Shown here: in pieces, positions 1 to 51,400 of the stretch
How the letters are laid out: every line of letters begins with the position of its first letter
Numbering within the stretch: the first letter of the stretch is position 1
IMG/VR virus record: IMGVR_UViG_3300025889_000070
DNA: 64,000 bases
Source: a virus
Taxonomy: Duplodnaviria > Caudoviricetes
Reading direction: 5' to 3' (one strand)
The notes under the pieces: generated by a model
The model's database searches: none
What the model was told of the DNA's origin: nothing
Seen by the model: the letters and a program-made list of their open reading frames with translations, nothing else
Translations under genes and position numbers: made by a program

Positions 1-1
1 A

Positions 2-835
2 GATGACTGGTTTGATAATGTATGCTTGCCTATTGTAAATGAAACAAGTGGATGGGCATTTGGTGGTGTACAAAAAACAAACCTCAACCACAGCCTAAGA
101 AGGTTGCTATATCTCAAAGAACTTGGATTGCTACAAAAAGCAGAATGGATTCACTTCTTGGGCACAGGTAGACTTGACCAGGGTGTAATGTATACTGCTA
201 TGCAACGGGCTATCAGAAAGTCTATAAATCCGTTCCTTACAATAAGCATGGATTGTGCAAGTCCATTTATTGCTACAGCAAACGGCCAAGTGTATACTGA
301 CAATACATTTAACAACAAGCGTATTGGCTACAACATGGTACACATGGTAGACGAAAAGGATCCCGCAAACAAAGAAGCACCCTGGCCCTGGGACGACTCA
401 CCTATTGGCGCCAGACTTACCTGGCGTGATGTTAACTGGTATGATCCAGGTGACTTAAACAAGATTGGTAAAGAAGGCAAAACCAGTTGGGATAGTTTTG
501 CATACTGTTTGATGATGGGACATAACATCTACAAGCATATTGATTCAGTACAAATGGCTAACCGTCTAATGGCAAGGCCAATTGGTATGAATGAATGGAT
601 ACCAGACCAATATTTGCAATTCCAGGATCTATGTGTAGACTTGTTTGCTAGAGATTATAACAAGAGCATGGCTGCTATTGATGCAGAACTTGACAAGCAT
701 GAAGGTTTGATTAGTAAACTAAGCCGTATTAAAAATCTTAAAAACACAAACGCATTTGAGAGTTTGTTTAGTTTTGATGTTCCAACAACCAACACTGATA
801 TAGACAGTAGCCAGGAAGAGGACGATGCCCGATGA
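2..835 (+). CDS. TGT/DpdA-like guanine transglycosylase (5' partial; frame open to window start)
   Basis: GWAFGG, IHFLGTG, SMDCASPFIATANGQVY and MGHNIY align in order with Tgt motifs GYAVGG, YLMGVG, FDCVMPTRNARNGHLF and IHNL. The catalytic Asp is kept. Lies next to folE; queD/queE are downstream. Confidence 0.75.
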   Translation, partial: DDWFDNVCLPIVNETSGWAFGGVQKTNLNHSLRRLLYLKELGLLQKAEWIHFLGTGRLDQGVMYTAMQRAIRKSINPFLTISMDCASPFIATANGQVYTDNTFNNKRIGYNMVHMVDEKDPANKEAPWPWDDSPIGARLTWRDVNWYDPGDLNKIGKEGKTSWDSFAYCLMMGHNIYKHIDSVQMANRLMARPIGMNEWIPDQYLQFQDLCVDLFARDYNKSMAAIDAELDKHEGLISKLSRIKNLKNTNAFESLFSFDVPTTNTDIDSSQEEDDAR

Positions 836-1908
836 ACACCATTTATATTATATGTCTGGAGCCTATTGATCAGAGATATACTAAACAGTGGTTTACAAAC
901 ATTCCCAGTATACTGGAACAGCGTATCCAGGAACAGGGCTTAGATTATCGTGTAGTTACTATTGAAGGTGACACAGTGCCTGATAATACTACAGCAGGTG
1001 CGTTTTTGGACTTTGGTGCTACAAACGTCTACAAAGCAAGCCAGACTGTAACTGTTAGCAAGATGTTTAGTCAGGGAGACATCAAGCCTGGTGATAAGTT
1101 TTTAGTTACAGATGCCTGGAACTTTATTATTACACCTATCAAATACATGAGTGACCTGCTGGACATTCCAGTAGAAATACACAGCATCTGGCATGCTGGG
1201 GCATATGATCCCAGTGACATCCTGGGTTACAAAATGAACAAGCCATGGCCCTGGGATGCTGAGCGTAGTTGGTTTTATAGCAGTGACTATAACTACTATG
1301 CCAGTGAAAATCATCGTAAAATGTTTTTAACTAACTTAAACATACCAGAAGAATATCATCACAAAGCAGTGCGAAGTGGCCAGCCACACGAATTGATAAT
1401 CGATGATCTTGTTAGGCATCAGAATACAGACAAACAAGATCGTGTTATGTGGCCACATCGTTACAATGCTGACAAGCAACCAGCGATCGCAGAAGATCTT
1501 GCTGCCAACTTTGACATGGTTATTACTCAGAAAATGAACTTGAACAAAGCAGATTACTATGCTACAATGGGCACAAGTAAACTTATTTTTAGTTGTGCAC
1601 TACATGAGAACCTTGGCATCAGTGTCATGGAAGCAGTGCTAACTGGAGCAGTTCCAGTGGTGCCGGATCGTTGTAGTTACAGTGAAATGTATTTAGATGA
1701 ATTTAAATATCCCAGTGAGTGGACAGAGGATCTGGAAAGTTATCAGAAAAATAAACACAGGGTAGCAGAGTTTATTCAGGATAAACTGGATAACTACTCT
1801 AATTATCATAATCTTATTCGTGAGCAACAGAGTATTCTCGTACGAGATTATTTAAGCAGCAATATTATGATGGACAAATTATTAGAAAAAAAGGAACTTA
1901 GTGCATGA
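832..1908 (+). CDS. GT-B glycosyltransferase, GTDC1/QTMAN (DUF3524)-like
   Basis: Retaining GT-B signature HENLGISVME (E-x7-E). WPHRYNADKQP resembles the WPHRWEHDKDP motif I recall for GTDC1/QTMAN. ATGA overlap with the upstream gene. Confidence 0.85.
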   Translation: MNTIYIICLEPIDQRYTKQWFTNIPSILEQRIQEQGLDYRVVTIEGDTVPDNTTAGAFLDFGATNVYKASQTVTVSKMFSQGDIKPGDKFLVTDAWNFIITPIKYMSDLLDIPVEIHSIWHAGAYDPSDILGYKMNKPWPWDAERSWFYSSDYNYYASENHRKMFLTNLNIPEEYHHKAVRSGQPHELIIDDLVRHQNTDKQDRVMWPHRYNADKQPAIAEDLAANFDMVITQKMNLNKADYYATMGTSKLIFSCALHENLGISVMEAVLTGAVPVVPDRCSYSEMYLDEFKYPSEWTEDLESYQKNKHRVAEFIQDKLDNYSNYHNLIREQQSILVRDYLSSNIMMDKLLEKKELSA

Positions 1909-2594
1909 GAAATACTTCCGAACAAATTATAGAACGTATAAAACAGTCCAATGGCCGTTACTGGGCTGGAGATAATATTAGTGAATATCTAGGGCCAGGT
2001 GACAAAGAAGCACTTATTGAAGAACTTACTGTTAAGTTTGAAAGTGTACTGGATAGTTTGGTGATCGATCGTCACACTGATCCAAACAGTCAGGATACTG
2101 GCAGACGTTTGGCCAAGATGTACATTCGAGAGATAATGAGTGGTCGTTACAATCCTAAACCTAACGCAACAGCATTTCCTAATCATACAAATGAGCGATA
2201 TGATGGTATGCTAGTCGTGCGTAGTGAACTTAAAAGTATGTGTTCACACCACCATCAACCAGTCACTGGTGTAGCATACATTGGAATTATTGCTGCTGAT
2301 ACTCTCATTGGTTTAAGTAAATATACACGAATAGCACAATGGTGTGCTCGCCGTGGAACTCTACAAGAAGAACTTGCCATGGATATTGCCCGAGAAATTC
2401 AGGCAGCAACTGGCAGTAATGATGTTGGCGTATATATTCAGGCTACACATGGTTGTTGTGAAAATCGCGGCATAGGTGCTCATAGTAGCCTAACACAAAC
2501 TACAGTTTTGCGTGGCAGTTTCCACAATGATCCTGCTTGCAAGAAAGAGTTTATGGATAACATTAAACTACAACAAGGATTTGCTCCAAGATGA
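1905..2594 (+). CDS. folE: GTP cyclohydrolase I
   Basis: SMCSHHHQP, GLSKYTRIA, LQEELA, HGCCENRG and TTVLRGSF motifs. Confidence 0.97.
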   Translation: MRNTSEQIIERIKQSNGRYWAGDNISEYLGPGDKEALIEELTVKFESVLDSLVIDRHTDPNSQDTGRRLAKMYIREIMSGRYNPKPNATAFPNHTNERYDGMLVVRSELKSMCSHHHQPVTGVAYIGIIAADTLIGLSKYTRIAQWCARRGTLQEELAMDIAREIQAATGSNDVGVYIQATHGCCENRGIGAHSSLTQTTVLRGSFHNDPACKKEFMDNIKLQQGFAPR

Positions 2595-3301
2595 TACTGT
2601 TATTTGATGTAGACGGTACTCTTACTCCGAGCAGGGGAGAAATGAATCTTGAGTTTGCTAATAAGTTTCTCAAGTTAAAAAACTTTAGTTTAGTCACTGG
2701 CAGTGACTGGCCAAAAACAGTGGAACAAGTTGGCACAAAAATATTTGAAGATGCTGATTATTCATTTAATTGTAGCGGCAATGATGTTTACAGCAAAGGA
2801 AAACACATAGCCAAAAATAACTGGAAACCCGGCACAGACTTACTGGATTACCTTAGCAAGTGTTTAGGGGAATCTAGTTATCCTGAAAAATATGGTAACC
2901 ATATTGAAATACGAACTGGAATGCTTAACTTTAGTATAGTAGGAAGAAATGCTATAGGTAAGCAAAGAACAGATTATTATAACTGGGACGTTCAAATGCT
3001 GGAACGTGACAGAATATGCAGAGGAATCAAATATCATTTTCCAGAACTTTGTGCTGAAGTTGGTGGTGAAACTGGTGTTGACATTTATCCAGTTGGTAAT
3101 GATAAATCCCAGTGCTTAAAATATTTTGGTGGTCGACCAATACATTTTTTTGGTGATTCTTGTCACGCCGGCGGGAATGATTATAGCATAGCAAGTATAC
3201 TGGAATCTAGATCAGATTGTAAAGTATATCATGTCAATGATTGGAAGGAAACATGGCAGATCCTAAACCAAAAATATATGAATCACCTGATGGTGGATTA
3301 A
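2591..3301 (+). CDS. pmm: Phosphomannomutase, eukaryote-type HAD IIB
   Basis: LFDVDGTLTPSR, VTGSD, IEIRTGMLNFSIVGR and HFFGD..GGNDY, characteristic of the PMM1/PMM2/Sec53 family. Confidence 0.9.
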   Translation: MILLFDVDGTLTPSRGEMNLEFANKFLKLKNFSLVTGSDWPKTVEQVGTKIFEDADYSFNCSGNDVYSKGKHIAKNNWKPGTDLLDYLSKCLGESSYPEKYGNHIEIRTGMLNFSIVGRNAIGKQRTDYYNWDVQMLERDRICRGIKYHFPELCAEVGGETGVDIYPVGNDKSQCLKYFGGRPIHFFGDSCHAGGNDYSIASILESRSDCKVYHVNDWKETWQILNQKYMNHLMVD

Positions 3302-3585
3302 CTGTATACGCCAGAGATTTTGGTGCTCCAACGGATAGTAGAGTCGAGATTACCATGCCTGATAATCTTTACTATGACGAATTGTCTGGCTGGGAAGTTA
3401 AAATAAGTGATAATCGTTCTAACGGTTATATAGAGTATGACGCCATCAAAGAAGCAATAAAAAGTAACAGTACATTTGTAGATGTTGAATTACACAACAA
3501 ATATCCTGAACTCAGGGAAGCCTGGGAAGAATACAAAAAATTACAGGATCAATATAGTATGTGGCAACATATAGCACAAAAATAA
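3253..3585 (+). CDS. Hypothetical phage protein (IYESPDGG motif)
   Basis: ORF with GGAAGGA SD before the ATG at 3253. Confidence 0.75.
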   Translation: MADPKPKIYESPDGGLTVYARDFGAPTDSRVEITMPDNLYYDELSGWEVKISDNRSNGYIEYDAIKEAIKSNSTFVDVELHNKYPELREAWEEYKKLQDQYSMWQHIAQK

Positions 3586-3588
3586 TCC

Positions 3589-3623
3589 AAAACGGTTGAC
3601 GTTCGACAACCTCATGCTATCAT
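3589..3623 (+). promoter_or_regulatory. Sigma70-like early promoter of the subtilase gene
   Basis: AAAACGG-TTGACG, 16-nt spacer, TGc-TATCAT; same pattern as promoters at 15285 and 19629. Confidence 0.75.
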
Positions 3624-3664
3624 AATATTATGCAATGGTGCATATTTGATAAATGAGGTAAAAA

Positions 3665-6600
3665 ATGAACAAAGCATATATTGGTGCTTTGCTTGCTTCA
3701 ACTGCTCTGCTCAGTGCTTGTGTTCCTGGAAGTGGAACTCTAAGCTCTGCTGCAAGTACTGTAAAGTCTGCGTTTAACGCTAACAACGCTTTTGCTGTTA
3801 TTAGTGGGCAAATCTCAGAACTTGAAAATGTAGTTGCGGTGGCGCAAAGCAGCGCAAGCCTAAGCGCATTGGTCAATCCAACTAATGAAGACAGGACCAA
3901 TGCTGCCAACGTCGTTAGCAAGATTGATGCTGTTATCCGTGGCTGGGAAGATCATAAAGCCAACATGGATCCTAATCTACTTGCCGTTAAACTTAGTACA
4001 GCAGAATGGCGGCAAGCAGAAGCTGTTGTAAAACTACTCAAGGATGATCTCCGTCCCGTAGTTGACCGTGTAGTTCAGGGCGGCAACTATGATACCAAAG
4101 ACTTTGAATTCCTCGCAAAGAAGGAATCACTTGAACAAAAGATTAATGAAAAGAAGGCTGCCATTTTTGAAGCAGCCCAGCCCACTGTTATTAGCGCAAC
4201 TACCAGTGCAGTAACAGTAAACACTGGAGCGTCGTCCATGTCTCCTGAACGTGTCAAAAGCACTGAAGTTGTAGACGGTACACAAACGGTAACAGGTGGT
4301 AGTAGCATAAGCGATCTAACTCGTACAGCAACCTGGACCAGGACAACTACTCTGAGCATGGAGTATGATCGTACCTGGACTGTTGATGTACAGGATGTTA
4401 CTACAACTGTTTTCAGTAATGGTACTACATCTGAATCTCGTGGTACAGTTCGCAGCATTACAAACACTCAGACGTTTGATGCTCAACCACAGGTTAGCAG
4501 CCAGGAGATGACGCAAAACATTGGTTATACTGTTACAGAGCAGAATACACCAACTGTTAGTGTTACTAATGGAGAACCCACTGTTGTTGCTGAACACGTA
4601 GATAGGGTTGAACAAACAACTCAGGAAAATGGAAGTATTTTACATACTACTATTAGGACTACTACAACTACTACTACCACTCCTGTGACAACTACTACAA
4701 CTTATCCAAAAATTAGTGTCTACAACTATGAAGATGGACACTCTTTTACACACGATGCTACTGATGAAGTTTTGAGTAGCACAGTGGATGATGTTGTTGT
4801 TGCTACCAGTGAGGCTGTCGTAGAAACTATTACTGAGCATGTTGTAACAACAGAAACTACTACTAATGAAGTTGTTACACAGGTTACAGAAGGTAATCCA
4901 GTATTTGTTACTACACACGAAGATGTTACTACTACAAATACTGTAAACGGCGTAACTACTACTACAGTTACTCGTAACTATACTACAACTGCTACAGTGA
5001 CAACTACTACCACGACAAGTACTACCCCTGTAACTGTTAAAGTGTGGACAGACGGTAAACAAGAAACTATTCGTGGCGAAACTGTTGTAACAACGGAAAC
5101 CAGTGAAAGTGTAGTAACTGACCAGTGGGCAAAAGTAATGGAACAAACCACTACTGATGCTGTTGCGGAAGAAACTACAGAGTCAGCAGGAAGTGTTAAT
5201 CTTGCTGACCTAGGAACCCCAACGCCTGGAATGAGCAGCAATCCAGCAGACTTTAAGACCAATGAGTTTACCCTTGGTGCTACTGGTGGCTGGACTGACA
5301 ACAAAAGCATTATCAAGGCTGATGTTGCTTATAGTCGTGGTTGGACTGGTAAAGGTAGTTTGATTACCATTGCTGACACTGGCTATAATACCACGCACAC
5401 TGACTTAGAAGCAAAACACACTTTTAATACTATCACCGGTGATTCGACTAACATGGAAGATAATGTTGGACACGGATCACATGTTATGGGTATTGCAGCT
5501 GGCCGTAGAAACGGAACTGGTATGCATGGTGTAGCATTTGATGCTGATGTTGCTGTAGTTAAAGTAACAGATACCACAGGTTACAGTTTCGCTCGTGCTA
5601 GAACTGGCGCGACTTGGGCTGCTAACCTAGGCAGTGTTGCTTACAACGTAAGTGCTAACTATAGCTCAGACAGTGCTTTGCGTAGCAGTATTGTAGCAAC
5701 AGGTGATGGCACCTATAAGTCCACGCACTATTACTACGGTGTTAATGGCTATAATGGTGTACTACAAGAAGCCCAATTATGGAAAACCGCACTGGGTACT
5801 GAACAGATCCTAGTAAACAGTGCCGGCAACCAGACCAGCGATGTTGTATTTGGAACAGGACAAATGGCAACTGCTACAGAAAATGGTCAGCTTATCCTAG
5901 GCGGACGAATGCTGGTAGTTGGCAACTGGGACCAGAATAACAACGTTGTTCAGGGTGCAAAAGCTGGTCATCTTTGTACCACATACGATGAAGCAGCAGC
6001 AACTTGTAAAGACGCTGCTAGCATGCGGGACTTTTACATTCTTGCTCCAGGCATGAGTGTTAAGAGTGCTAACAAAGGAGATCCAAACGCTATCGTAGAC
6101 ATGAGTGGTACTAGTATGGCAGCACCACAGGTTACTGGCGCACTTGCTATTCTTAACCAAATGTGGCCACACATGAAAGGTGAAAACCTTGTCAAGTTGG
6201 TAACTACTACTGCCAGCAAGGACTTGCCTGGATACAATCCAGGTGTACACGGCAGCGGTTTGCTGGATTTGGATCGTGCTACACAGCCTGTAGGTGCTAC
6301 TGGTATCCCAACAAGTGGTCGTACCAGTGGCGCTATCGCAAGCCTGAGCACACTAAGCGGTGGTGCCCTAGTTGGCTCAATTAGCAGTGAAGCATTTGCT
6401 CCGCTTGCAAATGTTATGGTACTAGACAGCTTTGAGCGTGATTACACTATTGACCTTAGTGAAGCACAAAAGGTTGATACACGCCCAGGTAGCTATGTAG
6501 AATCTCTAGCATTTGGCAACGGCGACTACGACGCTTATGGAAACCTTGCCAGCAGTAATGCTAATCTTGCACTACCAAACATGCTAGGCTATACTGGTAA

Positions 6601-7231
6601 TATTAAAATCAACGAGAACGCAACTGGCGACTATGCATTTAGTGTTGGTTACAATCTTGTTGATGATAAGGATACCAAAGTAGATTTTGGTTTGGGCTTT
6701 GTCAAAGAAACAGGTAAGTTTCTTAACAACGTTCAGCAGGGCTTCATGGGAGTTGGTGAAAATCACACCACAAACTATGCCAGCCTAAAGATTAAACACA
6801 ACTTCAATGATACAGTGTTTGGGTTTGGTAATCTCCAGCTGGGTATGACAGATGTTGAATCCAGCAAGGATTTTAGCCTAGTTACAGGATACAGCAATCT
6901 AGTAAGTCGCAGTTTTGCTGTAGGCGCTGGGGTAAAGCCTGCTCAAGGCTGGAAACTCGGGGCTACATATAGTCAGCCACTAAATATCATGAGTGGCAAA
7001 ATGAACTACAAAGTTCCTGTAGCCAGAACCTTGGATGGTCAAGTTCAGTTTAATGAAGGAAGTGCTGATGCAAGCACAAAAGTTATTGAACATGACCTGG
7101 GTCTTTTTGTACAATATAAGATGGATGAAAACTTTAGCTTTGCTGGCTATGGTGAACACAGAATAAACGTTGCCGGTACAAAAGGAAACAGCCAGACTAA
7201 CGTAGGTGTAAAATTTAACTGGCAGTTCTAA
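3665..7231 (+). CDS. Lipoprotein S8 subtilase with Thr/Val-rich stalk and C-terminal beta-barrel-like domain
   Basis: Lipobox LLSAC; catalytic IADTG, HGSHVMG, NSAGN and GTSMAAP; ends with alternating residues and a terminal Phe (VGVKFNWQF). Confidence 0.9.
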   Translation: MNKAYIGALLASTALLSACVPGSGTLSSAASTVKSAFNANNAFAVISGQISELENVVAVAQSSASLSALVNPTNEDRTNAANVVSKIDAVIRGWEDHKANMDPNLLAVKLSTAEWRQAEAVVKLLKDDLRPVVDRVVQGGNYDTKDFEFLAKKESLEQKINEKKAAIFEAAQPTVISATTSAVTVNTGASSMSPERVKSTEVVDGTQTVTGGSSISDLTRTATWTRTTTLSMEYDRTWTVDVQDVTTTVFSNGTTSESRGTVRSITNTQTFDAQPQVSSQEMTQNIGYTVTEQNTPTVSVTNGEPTVVAEHVDRVEQTTQENGSILHTTIRTTTTTTTTPVTTTTTYPKISVYNYEDGHSFTHDATDEVLSSTVDDVVVATSEAVVETITEHVVTTETTTNEVVTQVTEGNPVFVTTHEDVTTTNTVNGVTTTTVTRNYTTTATVTTTTTTSTTPVTVKVWTDGKQETIRGETVVTTETSESVVTDQWAKVMEQTTTDAVAEETTESAGSVNLADLGTPTPGMSSNPADFKTNEFTLGATGGWTDNKSIIKADVAYSRGWTGKGSLITIADTGYNTTHTDLEAKHTFNTITGDSTNMEDNVGHGSHVMGIAAGRRNGTGMHGVAFDADVAVVKVTDTTGYSFARARTGATWAANLGSVAYNVSANYSSDSALRSSIVATGDGTYKSTHYYYGVNGYNGVLQEAQLWKTALGTEQILVNSAGNQTSDVVFGTGQMATATENGQLILGGRMLVVGNWDQNNNVVQGAKAGHLCTTYDEAAATCKDAASMRDFYILAPGMSVKSANKGDPNAIVDMSGTSMAAPQVTGALAILNQMWPHMKGENLVKLVTTTASKDLPGYNPGVHGSGLLDLDRATQPVGATGIPTSGRTSGAIASLSTLSGGALVGSISSEAFAPLANVMVLDSFERDYTIDLSEAQKVDTRPGSYVESLAFGNGDYDAYGNLASSNANLALPNMLGYTGNIKINENATGDYAFSVGYNLVDDKDTKVDFGLGFVKETGKFLNNVQQGFMGVGENHTTNYASLKIKHNFNDTVFGFGNLQLGMTDVESSKDFSLVTGYSNLVSRSFAVGAGVKPAQGWKLGATYSQPLNIMSGKMNYKVPVARTLDGQVQFNEGSADASTKVIEHDLGLFVQYKMDENFSFAGYGEHRINVAGTKGNSQTNVGVKFNWQF

Positions 7232-7241
7232 GGAGGAAGAA

Positions 7242-7724
7242 ATGCAACTAGTGCAGATCACATTAGAAAACTATAAGAAACTTAAATTTAATATCGATGA
7301 TGATCCAGTACGGCCTGAGCTAACTTTAGACTTTAGACTAGCACCAGGGCGTGAGATTTGGGCACTAGTTGCAGATGACGAATACAAGGCGGCGGTCTGT
7401 GTGGCATACTGCAACGAAGTACCTATTACTGTAAAAGAACTTGATTATTACAGTCAAGCAGCGCATCAAGACGATCAACATGGTAATATTGCAATCGCAT
7501 ACACAGTTTGGACCAAGCAACCTGGTGCTGGAAGAAAACTAATATTGGACATGATAAAACTATTAGAACAACAACGTGTCCTGCGCCTAGTAACTCTAAG
7601 TCCAAAAACAGCAATGGCGAGAAAATTCCATTTAAGAAATGGCGCCTTTATTTTTCAATTAAATACTGAGACAGACAACTATGAATATAAACTTTATCAA
7701 GAACAGGAAACGAGTAATACTTGA
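7242..7724 (+). CDS. Hypothetical protein, possible GNAT-like fold
   Basis: YTVW..QPGAGRKLI and ARKFHLRNGA resemble GNAT acetyl-CoA-binding motifs; strong SD AAGGAGG. Confidence 0.55.
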   Translation: MQLVQITLENYKKLKFNIDDDPVRPELTLDFRLAPGREIWALVADDEYKAAVCVAYCNEVPITVKELDYYSQAAHQDDQHGNIAIAYTVWTKQPGAGRKLILDMIKLLEQQRVLRLVTLSPKTAMARKFHLRNGAFIFQLNTETDNYEYKLYQEQETSNT

Positions 7725-8124
7725 CAGACTGGGAAACAACCCTTATCTTGTTAGATACTACTTGTTCCTTAAAGATAGAAAATGGTTTCCATTCAATATT
7801 TTCCTACACAAGTTTCTAAGCAGTGACCCAGATGAACTACATGACCATCCCTGGCCCTACTTTACACTTATACTACGCGGCGGATACTGGGAAACAACAC
7901 CAAATGGCAGATTTTGGAGACAGCCTGGGCATTTTAGGTTTTGTAAACCAAAAGATTTACATCGCATTGAACTAGAGCCTGATATTACCGCCTGGACTCT
8001 TTTTATTCCTGGCCCAAAACTTAGAGAATGGGGTTTTATAGTAAACGGAAAGTGGATGCATAACGAGCAATATTTTGCTTGGAGAAAACAAAAGGTAAAA
8101 AATGAAAAAGTTGTATCTTTCTAA
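7681..8124 (+). CDS. Cupin-like protein
   Basis: LHDHPWPYFTLILRGGYWE and LHRIEL metal-binding cupin pattern. Confidence 0.7.
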   Translation: MNINFIKNRKRVILDRLGNNPYLVRYYLFLKDRKWFPFNIFLHKFLSSDPDELHDHPWPYFTLILRGGYWETTPNGRFWRQPGHFRFCKPKDLHRIELEPDITAWTLFIPGPKLREWGFIVNGKWMHNEQYFAWRKQKVKNEKVVSF

Positions 8125-8635
8125 TAAACAGATTAAAAAAAGCATACACGATATTGTTTCACAAATGTATGCTGATAACTGGCGACCTGACTACATTGTA
8201 GGTATTACTCGTGGCGGTCTTGTCCCCGCTGTTCTTATGAGCCATCTAACAGGTATTAAGATGCATACCCTTGATGTTAGATTACGTGATGCCGCTGGCG
8301 AAAATGAATCCAACTACTGGATGGCAGAGGATGCTTTTGGCAACCATAGAACTGATGATCTACCAAGTTATAGCAATCCGCATCTTAGGAAAAATATTTT
8401 AATCTTGGATGATATCAATGATAGCGGAGCAACTCTTGAATGGATCAAAAACGATTGGCCCAGCGGATGCTTGCCAAATGATCCTGCTTGGAATGATGTT
8501 TGGCACAATAATGTTCGTTTCGCGACCATTGTAAATAATCTATCAAGTCCCTTTGAAGTTGATTATTCCTGTATCGAAATAAACAAAGCGGAAGAAGATG
8601 TTTGGGTAGTTTTTCCCTATGAGGAATGGTGGTAA
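8102..8635 (+). CDS. Type I phosphoribosyltransferase (purine PRT-like)
   Basis: VGITRGGLVPA, PRPP loop LILDDINDSGATL, and WVVFPYE C-terminus. Confidence 0.9.
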   Translation: MKKLYLSNKQIKKSIHDIVSQMYADNWRPDYIVGITRGGLVPAVLMSHLTGIKMHTLDVRLRDAAGENESNYWMAEDAFGNHRTDDLPSYSNPHLRKNILILDDINDSGATLEWIKNDWPSGCLPNDPAWNDVWHNNVRFATIVNNLSSPFEVDYSCIEINKAEEDVWVVFPYEEWW

Positions 8636-9204
8636 TGCTGTTTACAGAATACAAAAATTGGATATCTGATAAGGAACACATTGATATTTTAAGTAAAATT
8701 GTATACGCACCAAAGTGGCGTTTTGGCCAAGTAAGTGATGATCAAATTGAACCAAACTATCCAATGTGGTTCCAGGGATTTTATCACGTGCACAAACATG
8801 AATTTAAGGACGATTGTCCTGATATTGCTAAAACTTTAACGGAACGGTTTTTGGACCTAGCACCCGACAACTATATGTTGGTTAGAAGCATGGCTAGTAG
8901 TAATACGTTTGGTCAGGACGGAGACTTTCACACAGATTGGCCAGTATTTGGGCAAAGCATTACTGGTGTACTTTATACTGATAAAGTATGGGAAACAAAC
9001 TGGGGCGGTGAAACCTTGTTTAAAGGAGATCAGGTTTTAGAAGCAAGTGAGTATGAGCCTTGTAAACTTGTTACTTTTGATAGTAGCATTCCGCACATTG
9101 GTAAAGGTCCCCAACGTAGGTGCAAGGAAATGCGTAGCATACTAGCATTCCAAGCAGTGGAAGCCGATGCTCTCAGAGAAAGAATGAATAAAAAACTTGA
9201 CTAA
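8635..9204 (+). CDS. 2OG-Fe(II) oxygenase (prolyl-hydroxylase-like)
   Basis: HTD triad, WGGETLF, distal His (PHIG) and R-S (MRSIL); TAATG coupling to the PRTase. Confidence 0.85.
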   Translation: MLFTEYKNWISDKEHIDILSKIVYAPKWRFGQVSDDQIEPNYPMWFQGFYHVHKHEFKDDCPDIAKTLTERFLDLAPDNYMLVRSMASSNTFGQDGDFHTDWPVFGQSITGVLYTDKVWETNWGGETLFKGDQVLEASEYEPCKLVTFDSSIPHIGKGPQRRCKEMRSILAFQAVEADALRERMNKKLD

Positions 9205-9225
9205 ATAGAAAGTACTTGTTATTAT
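9197..9225 (+). promoter_or_regulatory. Sigma70-like promoter of the queD operon
   Basis: TTGACT (9197-9202), 17 nt, TGt-TATTAT (9220-9225); predicted start site near 9231-9232. Confidence 0.7.
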
Positions 9226-9231
9226 AATAAT

Positions 9232-9290
9232 AAGAGGACTTAGTGTTCGTTCCCTCTTTAAATATTCCGCGCACTCCATAACCAAGGAGT
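9232..9290 (+). ncRNA. Candidate cis-regulatory RNA, preQ1-I-like pseudoknot with an SD-sequestering hairpin
   Basis: P1 AAGAGG/CCUCUU; loop AGUGU can pair with downstream GCACU; competing ACUCC/GGAGU hairpin covers the SD; directly upstream of queD. Confidence 0.5.
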
Positions 9291-9297
9291 ATAAATT

Positions 9298-9777
9298 ATG
9301 GCAAAATATATTAGTACTAAAACATATAGACACTTAGGTCCAGTAGCATACAGGCAGTGGAGAGCAGACAGTCATTGTAATTTAATTCATGGATACGCAT
9401 TAAGTTTCCATTTTGAATTTGAATGCGACACACTGGATGCTAGAAACTGGTGCATGGACTTTGGTGGTTTGAAGCCACTAAAACAAAACCTAGAAGATTG
9501 GTTTGATCATACGCTATTAGTAGCACAAGACGATCCAGACCGAGAAACATTGTTAGATCTTGGTAAAAAAGGATTAGCAAAGATCACAGAAGTTGAAAAA
9601 ACTGGCTGCGAGGGTCTAGCAGACTTCCTTTATGAATACGTAAATACTATTTTCTTACCCAACTATGGCAAAGCAGAAGCAGAACGTATCTGGTGCTGTA
9701 AAGTTGAGGTAAGGGAAACCGACTCAAATATGGCTATGCGTGTCGGGCATAGAGAAGATGGAGAATTCGATGTTTAA
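9298..9777 (+). CDS. queD: 6-carboxy-5,6,7,8-tetrahydropterin synthase
   Basis: HCNLIHGY, DFGGLK, FDHTLLV, CEGLA and VEVRET motifs. Confidence 0.93.
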   Translation: MAKYISTKTYRHLGPVAYRQWRADSHCNLIHGYALSFHFEFECDTLDARNWCMDFGGLKPLKQNLEDWFDHTLLVAQDDPDRETLLDLGKKGLAKITEVEKTGCEGLADFLYEYVNTIFLPNYGKAEAERIWCCKVEVRETDSNMAMRVGHREDGEFDV

Positions 9778-9985
9778 AACTTTTTGGAACTTTATTTCTG
9801 GTTTAGGCAGTGTTGAAGACATTGTAAAGACAGCTACAGTAACAGAAGCAGAACTTAAAAAGATGACCAAAAAAGAAATTGATGACTGGGCTGCTAGTTC
9901 AGGCGTTACACTTGATCGTCGTCTTACAAAAGATAAGATGATTGCTGAACTTAAAACACACACATCTAAAGTTAACATTACATAA
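9770..9985 (+). CDS. Small protein with Rho-N/HeH-like helical motif
   Basis: LKKMTKKEIDDWAASSGVTLDRRLTKDKMIAEL; GGAG SD before the ATG at 9770. Confidence 0.6.
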   Translation: MFKTFWNFISGLGSVEDIVKTATVTEAELKKMTKKEIDDWAASSGVTLDRRLTKDKMIAELKTHTSKVNIT

Positions 9986-9994
9986 GAGGCATTA

Positions 9995-10876
9995 ATGAAA
10001 ATAAGATACACTGAAGCGTTTTATAGTGTACAAGGCGAAGGAAGGTTTGTTGGAGTTCCCAGCGTTTTCTTGCGTATGTACGGTTGTAATTTTACATGTC
10101 CAAAGTTTGGGCTAGCAAGGGATGCAGATACAAGTCAGACTGATAAAAAGTTAGCGGACATTGTTTACGAAACAACCAAGGTGTTTCCTGAAAAATATGA
10201 TAGTGTAGATAAACTCCCACTTATTGAAACAGGCTGTGACAGTTATGCCGCTTGGCATCCTGCTTTTAAACATCTACAGAATGACGTAGACTTGGACACA
10301 CTTGTAGATAGACTGCTAGCACTAACACCCACTGGATCATGGACACAGGAAAATGGTCAAGACATACACTTGGTTATCACAGGTGGTGAACCTTTGTTGG
10401 GTTGGCAGCGTGTGTATACAGAACTATTTGAACATCCAAAAATGAAGGATCTTAAAAATGTCACTTTTGAAACTAACACCACACAGCCTTTGCAGGACAA
10501 TTTCCAGTCTTACCTCAACAATAACCAACAACTACATGTTACATGGTCATGTTCCCCGAAGCTATCGGTTAGTGGACATGCTTGGGATGATGCTATACAG
10601 CCTAGTATTGCTAGGAGTTACAGTGACATTCGTGATAGCTACCTATATTTCAAGTTTGTTGTATGTGATGATGTTGATGTGGAAGAAGTTGACCGAGCTG
10701 TGGCGGAATTTAGAGCTGCCGGTATTACTGCGCCGGTTTATGTCATGGCTGTCGGAGGTACAACAACAAGTTACTTTGCTAACGGCAAAACTGTGGCGGA
10801 ACTTGCTCTTAAAAAAGGCTATTGTTATTCGCCCAGGCTTCATGTCGACGTTTTTGGCAATGCCTGGGGAACGTAA
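9995..10876 (+). CDS. queE: 7-carboxy-7-deazaguanine synthase (radical SAM)
   Basis: FYSVQGEG..G.PSVFLR..GCNFTC, ITGGEPLL, FETN, SCSPKL and PRLHVD. Confidence 0.93.
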   Translation: MKIRYTEAFYSVQGEGRFVGVPSVFLRMYGCNFTCPKFGLARDADTSQTDKKLADIVYETTKVFPEKYDSVDKLPLIETGCDSYAAWHPAFKHLQNDVDLDTLVDRLLALTPTGSWTQENGQDIHLVITGGEPLLGWQRVYTELFEHPKMKDLKNVTFETNTTQPLQDNFQSYLNNNQQLHVTWSCSPKLSVSGHAWDDAIQPSIARSYSDIRDSYLYFKFVVCDDVDVEEVDRAVAEFRAAGITAPVYVMAVGGTTTSYFANGKTVAELALKKGYCYSPRLHVDVFGNAWGT

Positions 10877-10889
10877 TAAATCCACTGGT

Positions 10890-10970
10890 ATGCCTGTAAT
10901 AGAAAAACAAAAACAAGAAAAACTAGTCCCAAAAGATTTAGAACAGAGACTTAGAGAATCAGGATTATGA
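10890..10970 (+). CDS. Possible 26-aa peptide (MPVIEKQKQEKLVPKDLEQRLRESGL)
   Basis: Fills the gap between queE and the phosphatase gene and overlaps the latter by ATGA; no clear SD. Confidence 0.35.
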   Translation: MPVIEKQKQEKLVPKDLEQRLRESGL

Positions 10971-11530
10971 AATCAGTTTGGGTAAGACACGGTCAAAGCG
11001 AATACAATGCTCAAAACTTGAGCACTGGTTGGCACGATCCTGATCTTACAGAACAGGGAGTGATAGAAGCGCATCAAGCAGGTGTTGTGCTTGCTGAAAG
11101 ATACACAAGCGTTGCTGGCGTATATGCTAGTGACCTACGTCGTAGTTTTAATACTGCTAATATTATAGTAGAAACCACTGGTTGGAATATTACCCCACAG
11201 GTTAGTCCTGCTATAAGAGAACGTGATTATGGCGATTGGAGTGGTAAAAATAAAGATCAGATCAAGCAGGAACTGGGGGAAGATAAATTCTTACAAATAC
11301 GCAGAGGTTGGCAGGCCAGCCCAGTTAACGGCGAAAGTTTAAAAGATACTGCTGCAAGAGTTTATGGTTTTTTACGCGAAATAGAAGACAGAGCAAATGA
11401 ACTACCACATATTATTATTTGTCATGGTAATACAATCAGGGCGGCCGCAGTAGTGCTGGGAAAAAGAACACAAGAAGACGTACATGAGTTTGAAGTACAC
11501 ACAGGAGAAGTAATTGAATGGGACTTTTAG
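10967..11530 (+). CDS. Histidine phosphatase / dPGM-like protein
   Basis: VRHGQSEYN, ASDLRRS, ERDYG and ICHGNTIRA motifs. Confidence 0.9.
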   Translation: MKSVWVRHGQSEYNAQNLSTGWHDPDLTEQGVIEAHQAGVVLAERYTSVAGVYASDLRRSFNTANIIVETTGWNITPQVSPAIRERDYGDWSGKNKDQIKQELGEDKFLQIRRGWQASPVNGESLKDTAARVYGFLREIEDRANELPHIIICHGNTIRAAAVVLGKRTQEDVHEFEVHTGEVIEWDF

Positions 11531-11886
11531 ATGATGCAAAACGTGCTATGGGCCTGGGGAAAGCAAAAGTAGTAGAAGAGCCAAAACCTAGAGCGCCTAA
11601 AAAAACAGCAAAAGAAATTGCTACAGAAAAGGGAGAGCCCTGGGTAAGTGTGCTCGATATAGAACTGGATCCTGAAAATCCTGGAAACGGTGCTTTTGAA
11701 CTTGACTGGAACGAATATTTTATAAAGCGTCTTTGGAAGGCTGGCTACCGTGACGAAGATGAAAATGACATGGTAGATCGTTGGTTCCAGGATGTTTGTA
11801 GACAGGTAGTTCTTGAAACATATGAAAAAGATGAAGCAATGGTAACCAGAAATGATCTAGGTGATGGAAAGACAGAGTATAGATAA
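11518..11886 (+). CDS. Hypothetical phage protein
   Basis: ORF coupled to both neighbours. Confidence 0.75.
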   Translation: MGLLDDAKRAMGLGKAKVVEEPKPRAPKKTAKEIATEKGEPWVSVLDIELDPENPGNGAFELDWNEYFIKRLWKAGYRDEDENDMVDRWFQDVCRQVVLETYEKDEAMVTRNDLGDGKTEYR

Positions 11887-12656
11887 TGTTGCTATACGTA
11901 AATGGTGATAGTCATAGTGCTGGAGCAGAACTTGTTAAAGACTATTGCTTTGCAGAAGACGACAACCGATATCGTCATTATGGCAGAACTCCTCACCCTG
12001 AAGCAATACCAAAAACATTTGGACATCATTTGTCTAAAAAACTTAACGCTGGCTACTTTTTAGACGCTGAGAGTGCAAGTAGTAATGATCGTATCCTCCG
12101 GACAACTCAGTTATTCCTAGGTGAGAAAATACGCAAACCGCGTACAATAGTTATTGGTTGGAGTTCCTGGGAGAGAGAAGAGTTTTGGCATACTGATAGA
12201 TATTATCAGTTTACAGCAAGTGGAACTGATAGTGTTCCTGAAGAATTAGAACTTGATTATAAAATCTGGGTTGCAGAACAAACTAATGATACACTAAGAA
12301 TAAAGCACATATACTGGCACAATAAAATCTGGGATTTTCACCAGGAACTTGTGGAGAAAAACGTTAAACATTTATTCTTTAATGCCATGCAAAATTTTAA
12401 TCCAGGCTGGGTAGAAAGCAAGGACTGGCAGGGAAGTTATATAGAGCCATATGATAATAACTGGGTATACATAAACTGGGCTAAACAACAAGGCTTCCTA
12501 ACAGCAAACTTCTTTGGCAGTCATTATGGCGAGGACGCTCATAAAGCCTGGGCAAGAGAACTTCATACACGGTTGACAGGACCAGTAGAATCTAGTACAA
12601 TAAACACTAGAGTAGTAAATGCAAGAGTAAACCCTTACAAACCGAGGAAGTTGTGA
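11886..12656 (+). CDS. Hypothetical protein, SGNH-hydrolase-like
   Basis: N-terminal NGDSHSAG, ASSNDRI and C-terminal HYGEDAH. Confidence 0.55.
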   Translation: MLLYVNGDSHSAGAELVKDYCFAEDDNRYRHYGRTPHPEAIPKTFGHHLSKKLNAGYFLDAESASSNDRILRTTQLFLGEKIRKPRTIVIGWSSWEREEFWHTDRYYQFTASGTDSVPEELELDYKIWVAEQTNDTLRIKHIYWHNKIWDFHQELVEKNVKHLFFNAMQNFNPGWVESKDWQGSYIEPYDNNWVYINWAKQQGFLTANFFGSHYGEDAHKAWARELHTRLTGPVESSTINTRVVNARVNPYKPRKL

Positions 12657-48407: not shown

Positions 48408-51400
48408 TTATAACTCTAATTCCTCGACATAATTTGCATCAACGTATCCGTCGTCTACATATAATGGGCTTTGTAGTTCTTGGATGTAGTTAGGCAATGC
48501 TGCTTCACAGTCTTTGAGGAAGGCAGCGTTAATTGTACTTGAACTTTGCAGTCCATAACCATTTGCTGCGGTGCTCGCTCCTAAAGTATACCAGGTTTTT
48601 GTATGAGTATCTGTTGCTGGTAAACGCTGTTTATCTGTTGTGTCATAAACTTCTGTGCCTTTTAAATGCATAGGAGCCCAGCGTGTGCCCATTGTACTGC
48701 GTCTGATATTAGTTACATAGTTGTCCTCCAAACTGATTTCCCAGTATGTGATTCGCTCATTGCCAACATATAGTACACCAGGGTTGTCACTGTTAACGTT
48801 AACAAGCGGAAGTTTGGTAGCATCTTCTACATAAATTTTTGTATCCGCTGGTTTTAAATCTTTAGCAAGTTTTGTTTGTCCATCATTGCAGAGTCTAAAA
48901 TATTCGTAGTTACCCAGCATGTCGTTAACCATTCTATATCCAATAATTGGTTCAATGGTATTTTCACTAAAATGTGTTACAATAATTTCAGTATTTGCAT
49001 TAATAATTTGGCTACTTAAATCTATTCTACCATTTATATCAATAGTAAAATCACCAGCATGTAGTCTTACGCCGTCCAGTGTAATCCAAAGGTTGTTTGC
49101 GTTTGTTGGGGTTCTATCCTGAGTATATTTGTTAAGAGCAAGACCTGCTAGTGTTTCGCCATCGAAAGCCCCGCTGTCGAACCCAAGCTCATCAAACTCA
49201 TCAATGCTGGGCACAAGTTCACTGCCTTGTCCAATAAAGACCTTTGTTTGTGTTCTTAATGGATCGTGGTTATTAAATGAGGTAACGTATACTTTATCGC
49301 CAGTAGAAAAACTTACGCTATTATCTAACCTTAGTTTACCAGCATCAATATAAAACTCGTTGCTATTCTCAACACTTACAATTAAAGTGTCACCAGAATT
49401 ATAAGCACTTAGCAAATTAACTTGCCAAACAAGTGTGCTAGTTGCGTCTACAACTTGTGTGAGTGTATAATCCTGAATATTATTTAGATTTTGCGTAATA
49501 TTGTTAATTTTGTCTAGGCGTGTTACAATTATGTCTCCAACGCTGGTGTTTGCCGCTGTTTCCTGAGCAGTGCTGGGAACTCGATAAGCGACTGTACTGC
49601 CATCTAAAGTGTAATATTTACTGTTGGAGGGACGCAATCTTTCTGTACCTAGTTCTACAATGACATTACCAGTTAATGGGTTTGCAAAATCGTCATCAAA
49701 AGATTGGTCTAGGTTATAAATGTAAGTACCACTTGTTAGTGTTATTTCCTGCGTTGTGCCGTAGGTGAATGCTGGCTTGGCTACACTTCTATTACTAATA
49801 AAAGCATGCAATACACTGCCATCTGGATTGTTTGTACTTAATGTAATATTTACTCTATTGTTTTGATTGGAAATAGTGTGTGTTACCGGAACACCATCTC
49901 TGAGAACTAAACTTTGCACATAGCGGCTATACTCTACGCCTAGTGTGTATTGTACTGTACTGCCATCGCCAATAATGACTTCCTCATGTGTTATTTTTTC
50001 TCCAGTGGTTCCAAATCCATAAATGTAAATCTGTGTACCTGCTGCTGGTGTACTAGCAAAACTAATAGTCCGACCTTCATAATCTGCTGTAAAGTCAAAG
50101 ATTCTTGTACTACCCTGATACACGACCAAGTAATCTACTAATTCTTTTCTGGTTAAATTAGCATAATAAAACTTGTTACTTGTTCCGTCTGCTGTGTAAA
50201 CTCTGCTTACTGTTTTAAAACTATTTCCGTCACCTAGGAAGTCATCACTGGGATCTGTATATACTTCCATGTCCAAGTTATCAAAAACAATGCCTGGAAC
50301 AAATTCTTCTGGAGCATGACTGTTGTAAACATCTACAAACTTGCCACCGTCAATATCGATATCTTCTGGCCTGGTGCCCAGTGCCAAATCACTGAATGTA
50401 CTCTTAATAACTGTATCAAGACCACTAACAGTTGTTAAACCATCTGTGTCTATTTCAAAGTTGTCAAAACCAATTATATCGTAGGTTGCGCTGTCAAACC
50501 CGGGCTCTTTGTCAAATCCAAGACCACTTACTTTGTTCGCCAAATATCCAGTACCAGGCTGTAGTAGTTCAAGATCGTCACCTAGCATGCCTTCGCCAGG
50601 CACATAGTAGGCGCCAATTCTGTCTGCCGCGCTGCTTAAATTTTCATCAGCATAAGGAACAAGTATTATAGTACCAGTTATATCTTCCACACTAAAGGCA
50701 CTGCCACTGGTAAATCCTCCACTAGCACTAACCTGATAAACTTCCTGTATTTTAGTGTTGGTATTGTAGTAGGCAATTAGATCCTTATATACATAACTGG
50801 TATTTGCTGCCCAGTCTTTAACTATAGTGGCATAGGTAATTCTATCAAACTTTAATGTTGTATCAAACTCTCTAATCTGATCATTTTTTAGTCTTGGTGA
50901 AATATCCAGTCCAGTACCCTGCCCTGTAATAGTTAGTGTAGGTGTTTTTGTATAACCACTGCCCTTGTTTGTTACTGTTATTCTAACTATGCTGTTGCCA
51001 TTGGTAACCGCAGTAGCAGTTGCCTGCGTACCACCAGAGACATCAGGTGCACTAATAGTAAGTGTTGGGTTGTCTAAAAATCCAGCGCCAGCACTGTTAA
51101 TAACGATGCTGTCAATATAGTAAGTATAGTTTTTACTCCAGGGATTATTCAAACCCTGAGTTCTAGTTATTTCGTCTCCGCCAAAGTCACCACTGGGCTT
51201 TCTGAAATATTCTACACTGGTATCATAAAAACTGTGTAAGTCAAAGTCTGTTACATCACCTTTCCAGTTATCAGTACCATCATATTTGGCAACATACTCT
51301 CTAATTTTAGTGTGATAGGGCTTAACTTCCTCAATATATTTTTCTACAAAAGTACTATTATCAAGCTGGTAAGTTGGATACTGATCTAGATCTCTAATTT

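Follow-up and report, generated by a model that had tools for sequence, protein, structure and literature searches.

QTMAN (GTDC1) is a tRNA-queuosine alpha-mannosyltransferase built from a QTMAN_N domain (PF12038) and a Glycos_transf_1 domain. The human enzyme transfers mannose from GDP-mannose to queuosine-34 of tRNA-Asp, and its lysine K296 has been reported as required for activity. 7-Deazaguanines are also found in phage DNA, where, to our knowledge, they carry only small substituents (cyano, amido, aminomethyl, formyl, methyl, carboxy, or hydrogen), and we know of no glycosylation of DNA outside the pyrimidines. The gene discussed here encodes a glycosyltransferase (GT) and lies at positions 832 to 1908 (plus strand) of a 64,000-nucleotide stretch of DNA from a giant marine phage of the Caudoviricetes (IMG/VR record IMGVR_UViG_3300025889_000070), the whole of which we call the window. 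It adjoins a gene for a DpdA-like protein with the fold of a tRNA-guanine transglycosylase (TGT). The sequence comparisons below indicate that the C-terminal, nucleotide-sugar-binding half of the GT shares specific ancestry with QTMAN/GTDC1. We propose, with the scales about level, that the GT glycosylates a 7-deazaguanine inserted into phage DNA by the DpdA-like protein.

The GT gene is an uninterrupted, ATG-started frame of 358 codons, and its motifs are those of a GT-B (GT4-like, retaining-type) glycosyltransferase. The protein divides into an N-terminal acceptor half (approximately residues 1 to 145) and a C-terminal donor half (residues 146 to 358). The segment VMWPHRYNADKQP (residues 205 to 217; positions 1444 to 1482, plus strand) contains R210 and K215, aligns with WNHRWEYDK in hhalign, and is the counterpart both of W[NP]HRWE[YH]DK.P in QTMAN-type proteins and of the phosphate-binding segment GR...K(G) in GT4 enzymes; human K296 probably corresponds to K215. 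Residues 238 to 243 read NKADYY. The EX7E catalytic and donor segment SCALHENLGISVMEAV...VPDRCSYSEMY (residues 254 to 293, in full SCALHENLGISVMEAVLTGAVPVVPDRCSYSEMYLDEFKY; positions 1591 to 1710, plus strand) was recognized by alignment and conservation. It contains E259 and E267, the EX7E pair, spaced eight residues, and aligns with STA.HEFFG.S..EA...GC.PL.P.RLAYPE of the QTMAN-type alignment. The initial annotation had quoted this frame and these three motifs, the last as SCALHENLG...DEFKY, and all of them are real. An alignment of 52 family members, 25 to 55% identical to the window protein, shows E267 to be invariant and R210, K215, and E259 to be kept in at least 90% of the relatives. 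The N-terminal half is conserved at E10, R15, Y16, W20, F58, K68, and Q71, and further on at D94, W96, H121, D126, D129, W139, and E144. With both its catalytic residues and its N-terminal positions conserved, the GT looks like a catalytically intact enzyme with a defined acceptor pocket.

An AlphaFold2 model of the GT, calculated from a 23-sequence alignment, has the GT-B fold (predicted local distance difference test [pLDDT] score, 85.4; predicted template modeling [TM] score, 0.84). Foldseek matched 500 or more PDB entries at E ≤ 0.001, every one a GT-B enzyme; the best were BshA, PglA, MshA, and PimA, together with glycogen and starch synthases. BshA, MshA, and PimA, which lead the structural matches in Swiss-Prot as well (TM scores, 0.6 to 0.67), have the same EX7E-plus-R/K donor-binding kit as the GT. 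Pfam finds Glycos_transf_1 (PF00534) in the window protein at 15.9 bits, below the gathering cutoff of 26.4 bits, and nothing else at E ≤ 10; 41 of the 52 relatives match PF00534 at E ≤ 1, the best at 4.5e-9. The protein matched nothing in NCBIfam, in PHROGs, or, with phmmer, among PDB sequences, and megablast found no match to the gene in the phage collection. These results mark the GT as a divergent member of the GT4 superfamily.

The GT family is large and confined to viruses. A word-indexed search returned 983 related proteins, and an exhaustive HMMER search of 1.84 billion representatives (clusters at 50% identity) placed 2017 clusters within E ≤ 0.001, 310 of them within E ≤ 1e-30. In ESM-Atlas, viral sequences make up 94 to 100% of the nearest clusters. 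Homologues are present in cultured phages of Sinorhizobium (Phosso, 44% identity), Pseudomonas (the PA5oct group of jumbo phages, 37%), Acidovorax (ACP17, 32%), Burkholderia (BCSR5, 26%), and Xanthomonas (X1/BUDD, 24%). The GT module was also seen on a 49-kb contig (L009) and a 16-kb contig (L010) of metagenome-assembled genomes (MAGs) labelled Nitrosarchaeum and Deltaproteobacteria, respectively; a phage module in these cellular bins is probably contamination rather than evidence for a host or a prophage.

For comparison with the GT we collected QTMAN-type proteins with a degenerate DNA pattern for W[NP]HRWE[YH]DK, which found at least 120 metagenome stretches against a handful expected by chance (an estimate for a pattern of ~41 bits). 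Complete open reading frames (ORFs) were present in 55 of these stretches, 347 to 482 residues long and with the motif near residue 190 to 240. All 31 of the fished proteins tested matched QTMAN_N, with E values down to 1e-62, as well as Glycos_transf_1, and the QTMAN-type alignment made from these 31 keeps HENQ and FNS motifs without exception. The controls were 43 canonical GT4 ORFs (300 to 480 residues) from the 30 loci with the best PF00534 matches of one bacterial phylum, and the database size was fixed at 1e6 in the cross-searches. A hidden Markov model (HMM) of 52 phage proteins scored on all 55 QTMAN-type proteins, with a median of 62 bits and a maximum of 92.6 bits (E, 1e-24), compared with at most 15.9 bits on the controls. 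In the other direction, the QTMAN-type HMM scored on all 52 phage proteins, with a median of 55 bits and with 60.7 bits on the window GT (E, 6e-15); the controls reached no more than 30 bits. BLASTP aligned residues 205 to 296 of the window GT with a QTMAN-type protein that has WPHRWEHDKDP (L146) at E = 9e-12. The QTMAN-type set had been fished by a motif, and we therefore controlled for the bias by masking it, upon which the median score of the phage HMM fell from 62 to only 51 bits.

Alignment of profiles gave the same result. In hhalign, the phage and QTMAN-type alignments matched over 273 to 281 columns at 99.7% probability and E = 3e-26, whereas the phage alignment matched the canonical GT4 profile at 93.8% and E = 2e-7. 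The phage profile scored at most 27 bits over all PDB sequences, with a generic glycosyltransferase (AmGGT, 8xsg) as the best match, and at most 21 bits outside the phage contig over 88 whole genomes, a 61-genome sample of which holds more than 480 PF00534 matches; within these limits, the profile similarity of BshA, MshA, and PimA to the GT is weak and covers the EX7E region only. No QTMAN entry appeared among the PDB profile matches, which is uninformative, and we know of no solved QTMAN structure. PF12038 was not found in the 88 genomes, which represent the phylum of one MAG carrying the phage contig. By sequence, then, the similarity of the GT to QTMAN is far beyond chance and beyond what generic GT4 motifs provide, as the initial annotation had claimed, and a grouping with unrelated GT4 clades did not occur. 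QTMAN/GTDC1-type proteins were the closest nonviral relatives of the GT in every sequence test run, in which GT4 subfamilies were partly sampled and the matches of the 1.84-billion-representative search were read from the top of the list.

The similarity resides in the donor half. The part of the QTMAN-type proteins that follows the motif scores a median of 52 bits by itself with the phage HMM, and the N-terminal part scores at most 7.8 bits. The C-terminal half of the phage alignment (residues 146 to 358) matches the QTMAN alignment at E = 2e-28 and the canonical GT4 profile at 4e-8. The C-terminal signature of the window GT, WPHRYNADKQP and HENLGISVMEAVLTGAVPVVPDRCSYSEMY, is in register with the QTMAN-type blocks, the common pattern being (W/F)(P/N)HR...(D/E)K.P, an EY..LL helix, and (H/Q)E..G.S..EA...GC.P..P.RL.Y.E. 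Beyond these blocks, the GT shares the GT-B/GT4 retaining type with QTMAN, and overall identity is approximately 19%, with the phage proteins on a very long branch.

The N-terminal half is different. PF12038 (QTMAN_N, formerly DUF3524; cutoff, 25 bits) matched neither the window GT at E ≤ 10, nor any of the 52 relatives at E ≤ 1, nor the six-frame translations of the Phosso, PA5oct, and ACP17 genomes at E ≤ 10. In hhalign, residues 1 to 145 of the phage alignment gave E = 0.05 (1% probability) against QTMAN and 0.43 against canonical GT4, whereas the N-terminal half of QTMAN found canonical GT4 N-domains at E = 4e-7. At the places of the HENQ and FNS motifs the GT has WHAGAY and YASENH, with only the His common to both, and the phage-family consensus there is HAG(A/S) and (Y/F)A(S/T). 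The acceptor half thus appears to be a separate, well-conserved invention, unlike anything tested. Since QTMAN_N is undetectable and the C-terminal halves are alike, the GT is best described as belonging to a viral sister family of QTMAN and not to DUF3524: the proposed GTDC1/DUF3524 kinship holds for the C-terminal half and fails for the N-terminal half, where PF12038 is unmatched.

Structure searches agree with this description without deciding it. The first nonviral row of an ESM-Atlas fold search was a bacterial QTMAN_N cluster (TM, 0.76), with generic GT4 clusters at 0.72 to 0.78, and in Swiss-Prot Drosophila QTMAN ranked third, with the highest identity of the list (15%). Foldseek alone does not separate QTMAN (TM, 0.56 to 0.76) from other GT4 enzymes (0.6 to 0.78). 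Language-model neighbours of the GT were generic GT4 clusters, with no QTMAN_N cluster among them, a lead that we rank below the HMM and hhalign results. In a quick maximum-likelihood tree of three groups, each group is monophyletic and the phage family sits on a stem of 2.9 substitutions; a tree with three groups only cannot prove sisterhood.

The 3' part of the DpdA-like gene (277 of 487 codons) occupies positions 2 to 835 (plus strand), and its stop overlaps the GT start in the sequence ATGA. The full gene encodes 487 residues (L004:8541-10001); the product contains a DSGGFQ motif, as TGT enzymes typically do, and shares 39% identity with PA5oct gp316. The protein matched nothing in Pfam, PHROGs, or PDB sequences, and a profile search of PDB sequences was also empty, so that the fold search by itself identifies it: the AlphaFold2 model (pLDDT, 85.4) had tRNA-guanine transglycosylases as all 50 of its 50 best Foldseek PDB matches, which bears out the TGT-like neighbour named in the initial annotation. 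The GT gene is followed by folE, for GTP cyclohydrolase I (positions 1905 to 2594, plus strand; PF01227 at 1.6e-39), and by a gene for a eukaryotic-type phosphomannomutase (PMM), which converts mannose-6-phosphate to mannose-1-phosphate (positions 2591 to 3301, plus strand; PF03332 at 1.7e-32). Both are coupled to the preceding gene through ATGA overlaps, which makes the GT gene the second of four in an operon of dpdA-like, GT, folE, and PMM genes.

Farther downstream, all on the plus strand, are genes for a phosphoribosyltransferase resembling HGPRT (positions 8102 to 8635; PF00156 at 1.2e-12), a QueD/6-pyruvoyltetrahydropterin synthase (PTPS)-family protein (positions 9298 to 9777; PF01242), and a QueE-like radical S-adenosylmethionine (SAM) protein, a 7-carboxy-7-deazaguanine (CDG) synthase (positions 9995 to 10876; phrog_2076 at 1e-50). 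The phosphoribosyltransferase could convert a deazaguanine base to a nucleotide, as happens in tubercidin and toyocamycin pathways, which would bear on the matter of pre- versus postreplicative modification. The QueD/PTPS protein, here and at L003:4798-5274, reads CxxxHGY in place of the QueD signature CxxxHGH and may not catalyze exactly the QueD reaction. It is 69% identical to the only PTPS-family protein of ACP17, a conservation far above that of the TGT-like genes or of the GT (32%). Upstream of the TGT-like gene are genes for an NDP-sugar epimerase/dehydratase and a UDP-Glc/GDP-Man dehydrogenase, a cupin/oxygenase-like ORF, and a short DegT-like ORF. Window and flank together thus hold a Dpd-type set (a TGT-fold DpdA-family protein, FolE, QueD, and QueE). 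QueC (PF06508) was found neither in the window plus 10 kb upstream nor in three complete genomes and two large contigs of GT-bearing phages, the same search being positive in 14 of 14 cellular control genomes. This gene set fits the class with DpdA, FolE, QueD, and QueE but no QueC that was described by Cui et al. (PMC10516641), and without QueC the encoded pathway stops at CDG or a derivative. There was no Rfam match to a preQ1 riboswitch at E ≤ 1 in positions 1 to 12000.

The association of the GT with these genes was surveyed within 10 kb in 87 loci (80 IMG/VR contigs, 4 other contigs, and 3 cultured phages). FolE is near the GT in 78 loci, a phosphoribosyltransferase in 54, QueE in 50, and QueD in 37. 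A TGT-family gene lies at most 10 kb upstream of the GT in 78 of the 87 (66 of PA5oct type and 12 of ACP17 type, two types barely alignable with each other at E = 0.002), and in 7 of the 9 loci lacking one the contig breaks off within 2 kb of the GT on that side. In PA5oct, ACP17, X1, and BCSR5, whose GTs are 24 to 37% identical to that of the window, the GT adjoins a TGT-like gene; in X1 and BCSR5 the order is inverted, with the GT directly followed by the TGT-like gene and with folE and queE nearby. The presence of the GT beside two TGT subtypes, in two gene orders, and in divergent lineages is the main argument for functional coupling. The cluster is embedded in a replication module of polymerase, clamp, FEN/RNase H, and primase-helicase genes. 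Two candidates for further pathway members were rejected: p243, a regular companion of the module, proved to be the sliding clamp and so a marker of replication-module synteny, and small ORFs beside the ACP17-type DpdA, considered as DpdL, are DEDDh exonuclease-like.

A 7-deazaguanine in the DNA of these phages is suggested by the DpdA precedent, by PA5oct DNA, which is resistant at G-containing restriction sites and targeted by the hypermodification-sensing END nucleases (PMC12191111), and by the listing of a deazaguanine system in PA5oct by Iyer et al. In the mechanism that we propose, FolE, QueD, and QueE would make CDG, and the base, with no QueC seen, would be CDG or a derivative. The TGT-fold protein would exchange guanine in phage DNA for that base, as its fold and the DpdA precedent suggest, and the GT would then glycosylate this base in place, with a nucleotide sugar as the source of the hexose. 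Candidate acceptors would be the C7 substituent (the carboxylate of CDG), the exocyclic N2, or a hydroxyl from a further tailoring step, and the glycosylated deazaguanine would shield the phage DNA from host nucleases. QTMAN uses GDP-mannose and a PMM gene is translationally coupled downstream, which together make GDP-mannose or a derivative a plausible donor; in this phage, the neighbouring PMM would probably supply the precursor of such a GDP-mannose-type donor. The same gene string also contains the UDP-Glc/GDP-Man dehydrogenase, epimerase, and DegT-like genes.

QTMAN and the phage GT would thus both be tied to a 7-deazaguanine placed in nucleic acid by a TGT-fold enzyme. The likely substrate of the phage enzyme is DNA instead of tRNA, and its acceptor, unlike that of QTMAN, cannot be the cyclopentenediol of queuosine, since no QueC-dependent pathway is present. 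The proposed logic is also that of the T4 alpha- and beta-glucosyltransferases acting on 5-hydroxymethylcytosine, the base J glucosyltransferase, and the glycosylated 5-hydroxycytosine systems (PMC13326640): a base is modified and then coated with sugar by a transferase encoded beside the base-modifying genes, and the DNA escapes nucleases. These systems, however, act on pyrimidines with a hydroxyl handle, and none of the DNA-base glycosyltransferases of the T4 or base J type was among the PDB or Pfam matches of the phage GT. GT4 enzymes of the HuiG type, from huimycin and dapiramicin synthesis, likewise put a sugar on a scaffold derived from 7-deazaguanine; their substrate, however, is a small molecule in free form, made in the secondary metabolism of actinomycetes, and their N-domain is the canonical PF13439. 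The sugar of huimycin and dapiramicin sits on the exocyclic N2, so that a hydroxyl is not required of an acceptor.

Several points weigh against glycosylation of an inserted 7-deazaguanine. Full-text literature searches found no report of a glycosylated deazaguanine, or of any other glycosylated purine analogue, in DNA. Without QueC, the expected bases (CDG, or 7-deazaguanine [DG] if decarboxylated) offer no hydroxyl, so the acceptor would have to be a carboxylate, an amine (N2, as in huimycin), or the product of a further enzyme. The acceptor half has no detectable QTMAN_N similarity in Pfam or hhalign. It is chiefly the C-domain of a GT-B enzyme that binds the nucleotide sugar, and homology there therefore speaks for a related donor and not for shared recognition of deazaguanine; the kinship with QTMAN appears to cover the donor side. 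The DpdA3 phages phiST and CP220 fully modify their DNA without this GT. The DpdA-like gene of Phosso is ~170 kb from its GT. Sugar-nucleotide genes (PMM in 10 of the 87 loci, dehydrogenase in 7, epimerase in 6, and DegT-like in 14) accompany the GT only in close relatives, and synteny among the 80 metagenomic loci reflects in part shared descent and to that extent is not independent evidence. On the other side, the ACP17 DpdA together with DpdL gave no 2'-deoxy-7-deazaguanosine in E. coli, which the authors put down, tentatively, to enzymes that were missing; the GT next to the ACP17 DpdA is an obvious candidate for a missing enzyme and may explain the failed reconstitution.

The same genes can be read in other ways, the nearest of which keeps the sugar and changes the order of events. 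The GT could act before insertion, on the free 7-deazaguanine base or nucleotide, with the TGT-fold enzyme or a polymerase bringing the glycosylated unit into DNA. A phosphoribosyltransferase does accompany the module in 54 of the 87 loci, the GT4 enzyme HuiG of the huimycin pathway glycosylates a free 7-deazapurine (an O-methylated preQ0 intermediate), and Cui et al. (PMC10516641) note that a 7-amido-7-deazaguanine (ADG) nucleoside was seen in the cytoplasm of cells infected with a DpdA3 phage. A TGT pocket, however, fits closely around its base and would have to be much enlarged to take one with a hexose attached, and QTMAN, the closest relative of the GT, acts on a base already in the polymer; we consider this order of events unlikely. 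Another reading leaves deazaguanine out altogether, with a GT that glycosylates a hydroxymethyl-pyrimidine, a protein, or an envelope precursor and merely shares an early or replication operon. The upstream sugar-nucleotide genes do resemble surface-polysaccharide sets common in large marine phages, the window protein is below the Pfam threshold for any family, and its acceptor half has no informative relative. Yet in four of five cultured lineages, at 24 to 44% GT identity, the GT adjoins or is a few genes from a TGT-fold gene, the linked lineages differ in TGT subtype and gene order, and Phosso, with its DpdA-like gene elsewhere, has folE and queE next to the GT. The sugar genes, moreover, come and go, and a thymidylate-synthase-family gene is missing from three of the five GT-bearing records, which makes a hydroxymethyl-pyrimidine acceptor unlikely. 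Independence of the GT from the deazaguanine genes therefore seems to us quite improbable.

The module might instead modify tRNA, with a deazaguanine at position 34 that the GT glycosylates as in animals, thereby tuning translation. TGT and QTMAN, the nearest relatives known for the two proteins, both act on tRNA, and the QTMAN-like genes of bacteria have the look of housekeeping genes that stand alone, in some cases beside smpB. Against this, the cluster sits inside replication genes, the DNA of PA5oct itself behaves as G-modified, and the DpdA-family proteins of phages that have deazaguanine genes are known to act on DNA. There are no tRNA genes in the window, and neither QueC nor QueA was seen for a diol of the queuosine type, the genome-wide search in relatives having been made for QueC only. 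A role in tRNA modification is, in our judgment, very improbable. The initial annotation had suggested an ancestral prokaryotic role of DUF3524-type enzymes in deazapurine glycosylation; among 135 immediate neighbours of bacterial and metagenomic QTMAN-type genes (L095-L214), the commonest family was SmpB (8), followed by FlgD_ig (6), and no tgt or que family was among the 25 commonest Pfam families, so that this suggestion finds no support. The bacterial genes resemble housekeeping genes at scattered sites, in a context that is uninformative about deazapurines.

Other features of the module and its surroundings deserve mention. In BCSR5 (L255:5812-6516) and X1 (L254:5873-6517), the gene two places upstream of the GT encodes a protein whose start resembles a PIG-L/LmbE deacetylase; the BCSR5 protein matches PF02585 at 24 bits, below the cutoff, and the X1 homologue is 28% identical to it. 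The pairing recalls MshA/MshB and BshA/BshB and, by analogy, hints at a route in these two phages in which N-acetylglucosamine is transferred and then deacetylated. X1 also has a PP-loop protein of the PAPS-reductase family adjoining folE. Three small cupin or 2-oxoglutarate-oxygenase-like ORFs are found at positions 7681 to 8124 and 8626 to 9204 (plus strand) and at L004:7375-7899, with matches to phrog_4786 and phrog_274 and a weak match to Asp_Arg_Hydrox; they are present only in close relatives (2 to 8 of the 87 loci) and could create or tailor the acceptor or the sugar. Upstream of the window, L004:1162-2885 holds two adjacent radical-SAM genes besides the QueE-like one, seen in 2 to 4 of the 87 loci.

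The deazaguanine operon is followed at positions 3665 to 7231 (plus strand) by a gene for a 1188-residue protein, present in 21 of the 87 loci. It begins with what resembles a signal peptide or lipobox, has a long region rich in Thr and a subtilisin domain (Peptidase_S8), and ends in a part that resembles an autotransporter beta-domain. Positions 11518 to 11886 (plus strand) encode an acidic protein of 122 residues that lacks a family match; it is near the module in 38 of the 87 loci and has homologues in Phosso (41%) and PA5oct (31%). A single ORF of 4524 codons occupies positions 48408 to 61982 (minus strand) among structural-looking genes.

The proposed activity would be a variant that joins two known themes, deazaguanine DNA and glycosylated DNA bases; full-text literature searches found no paper tying QTMAN, GTDC1, or DUF3524 to phage Dpd clusters. 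In its broadest form, the proposal is that a glycosylated 7-deazaguanine is present in the virion DNA of this phage and its many relatives (the PA5oct-like and ACP17-like phages, Phosso, jumbo phages of Xanthomonas and Burkholderia, and the abundant T4-related phages of marine samples). It would be the first purine analogue in any DNA to bear a sugar, the phage enzymes making it would have their donor-binding domain in common with QTMAN, and glycosylation of deazaguanines in nucleic acids would be an old enzymology common to phage DNA and cellular tRNA; we place this slightly on the doubtful side of even. If it is true, a sugar-bearing deazaguanine would be a new class of DNA hypermodification that bears on restriction, CRISPR, and glycosylase-based defences, deazaguanine-specific defence glycosylases and END nucleases would face a different substrate, and the sequencing and cloning of such phage DNA would be affected. 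Because the GT family is large and has members in cultured Pseudomonas, Xanthomonas, Acidovorax, Burkholderia, and Sinorhizobium phages, the prediction is testable by mass spectrometry. For QTMAN/GTDC1, the phage family would provide the first clear out-group, with the same donor half and a different acceptor half, and this should be useful for working out how QTMAN recognizes its substrate.

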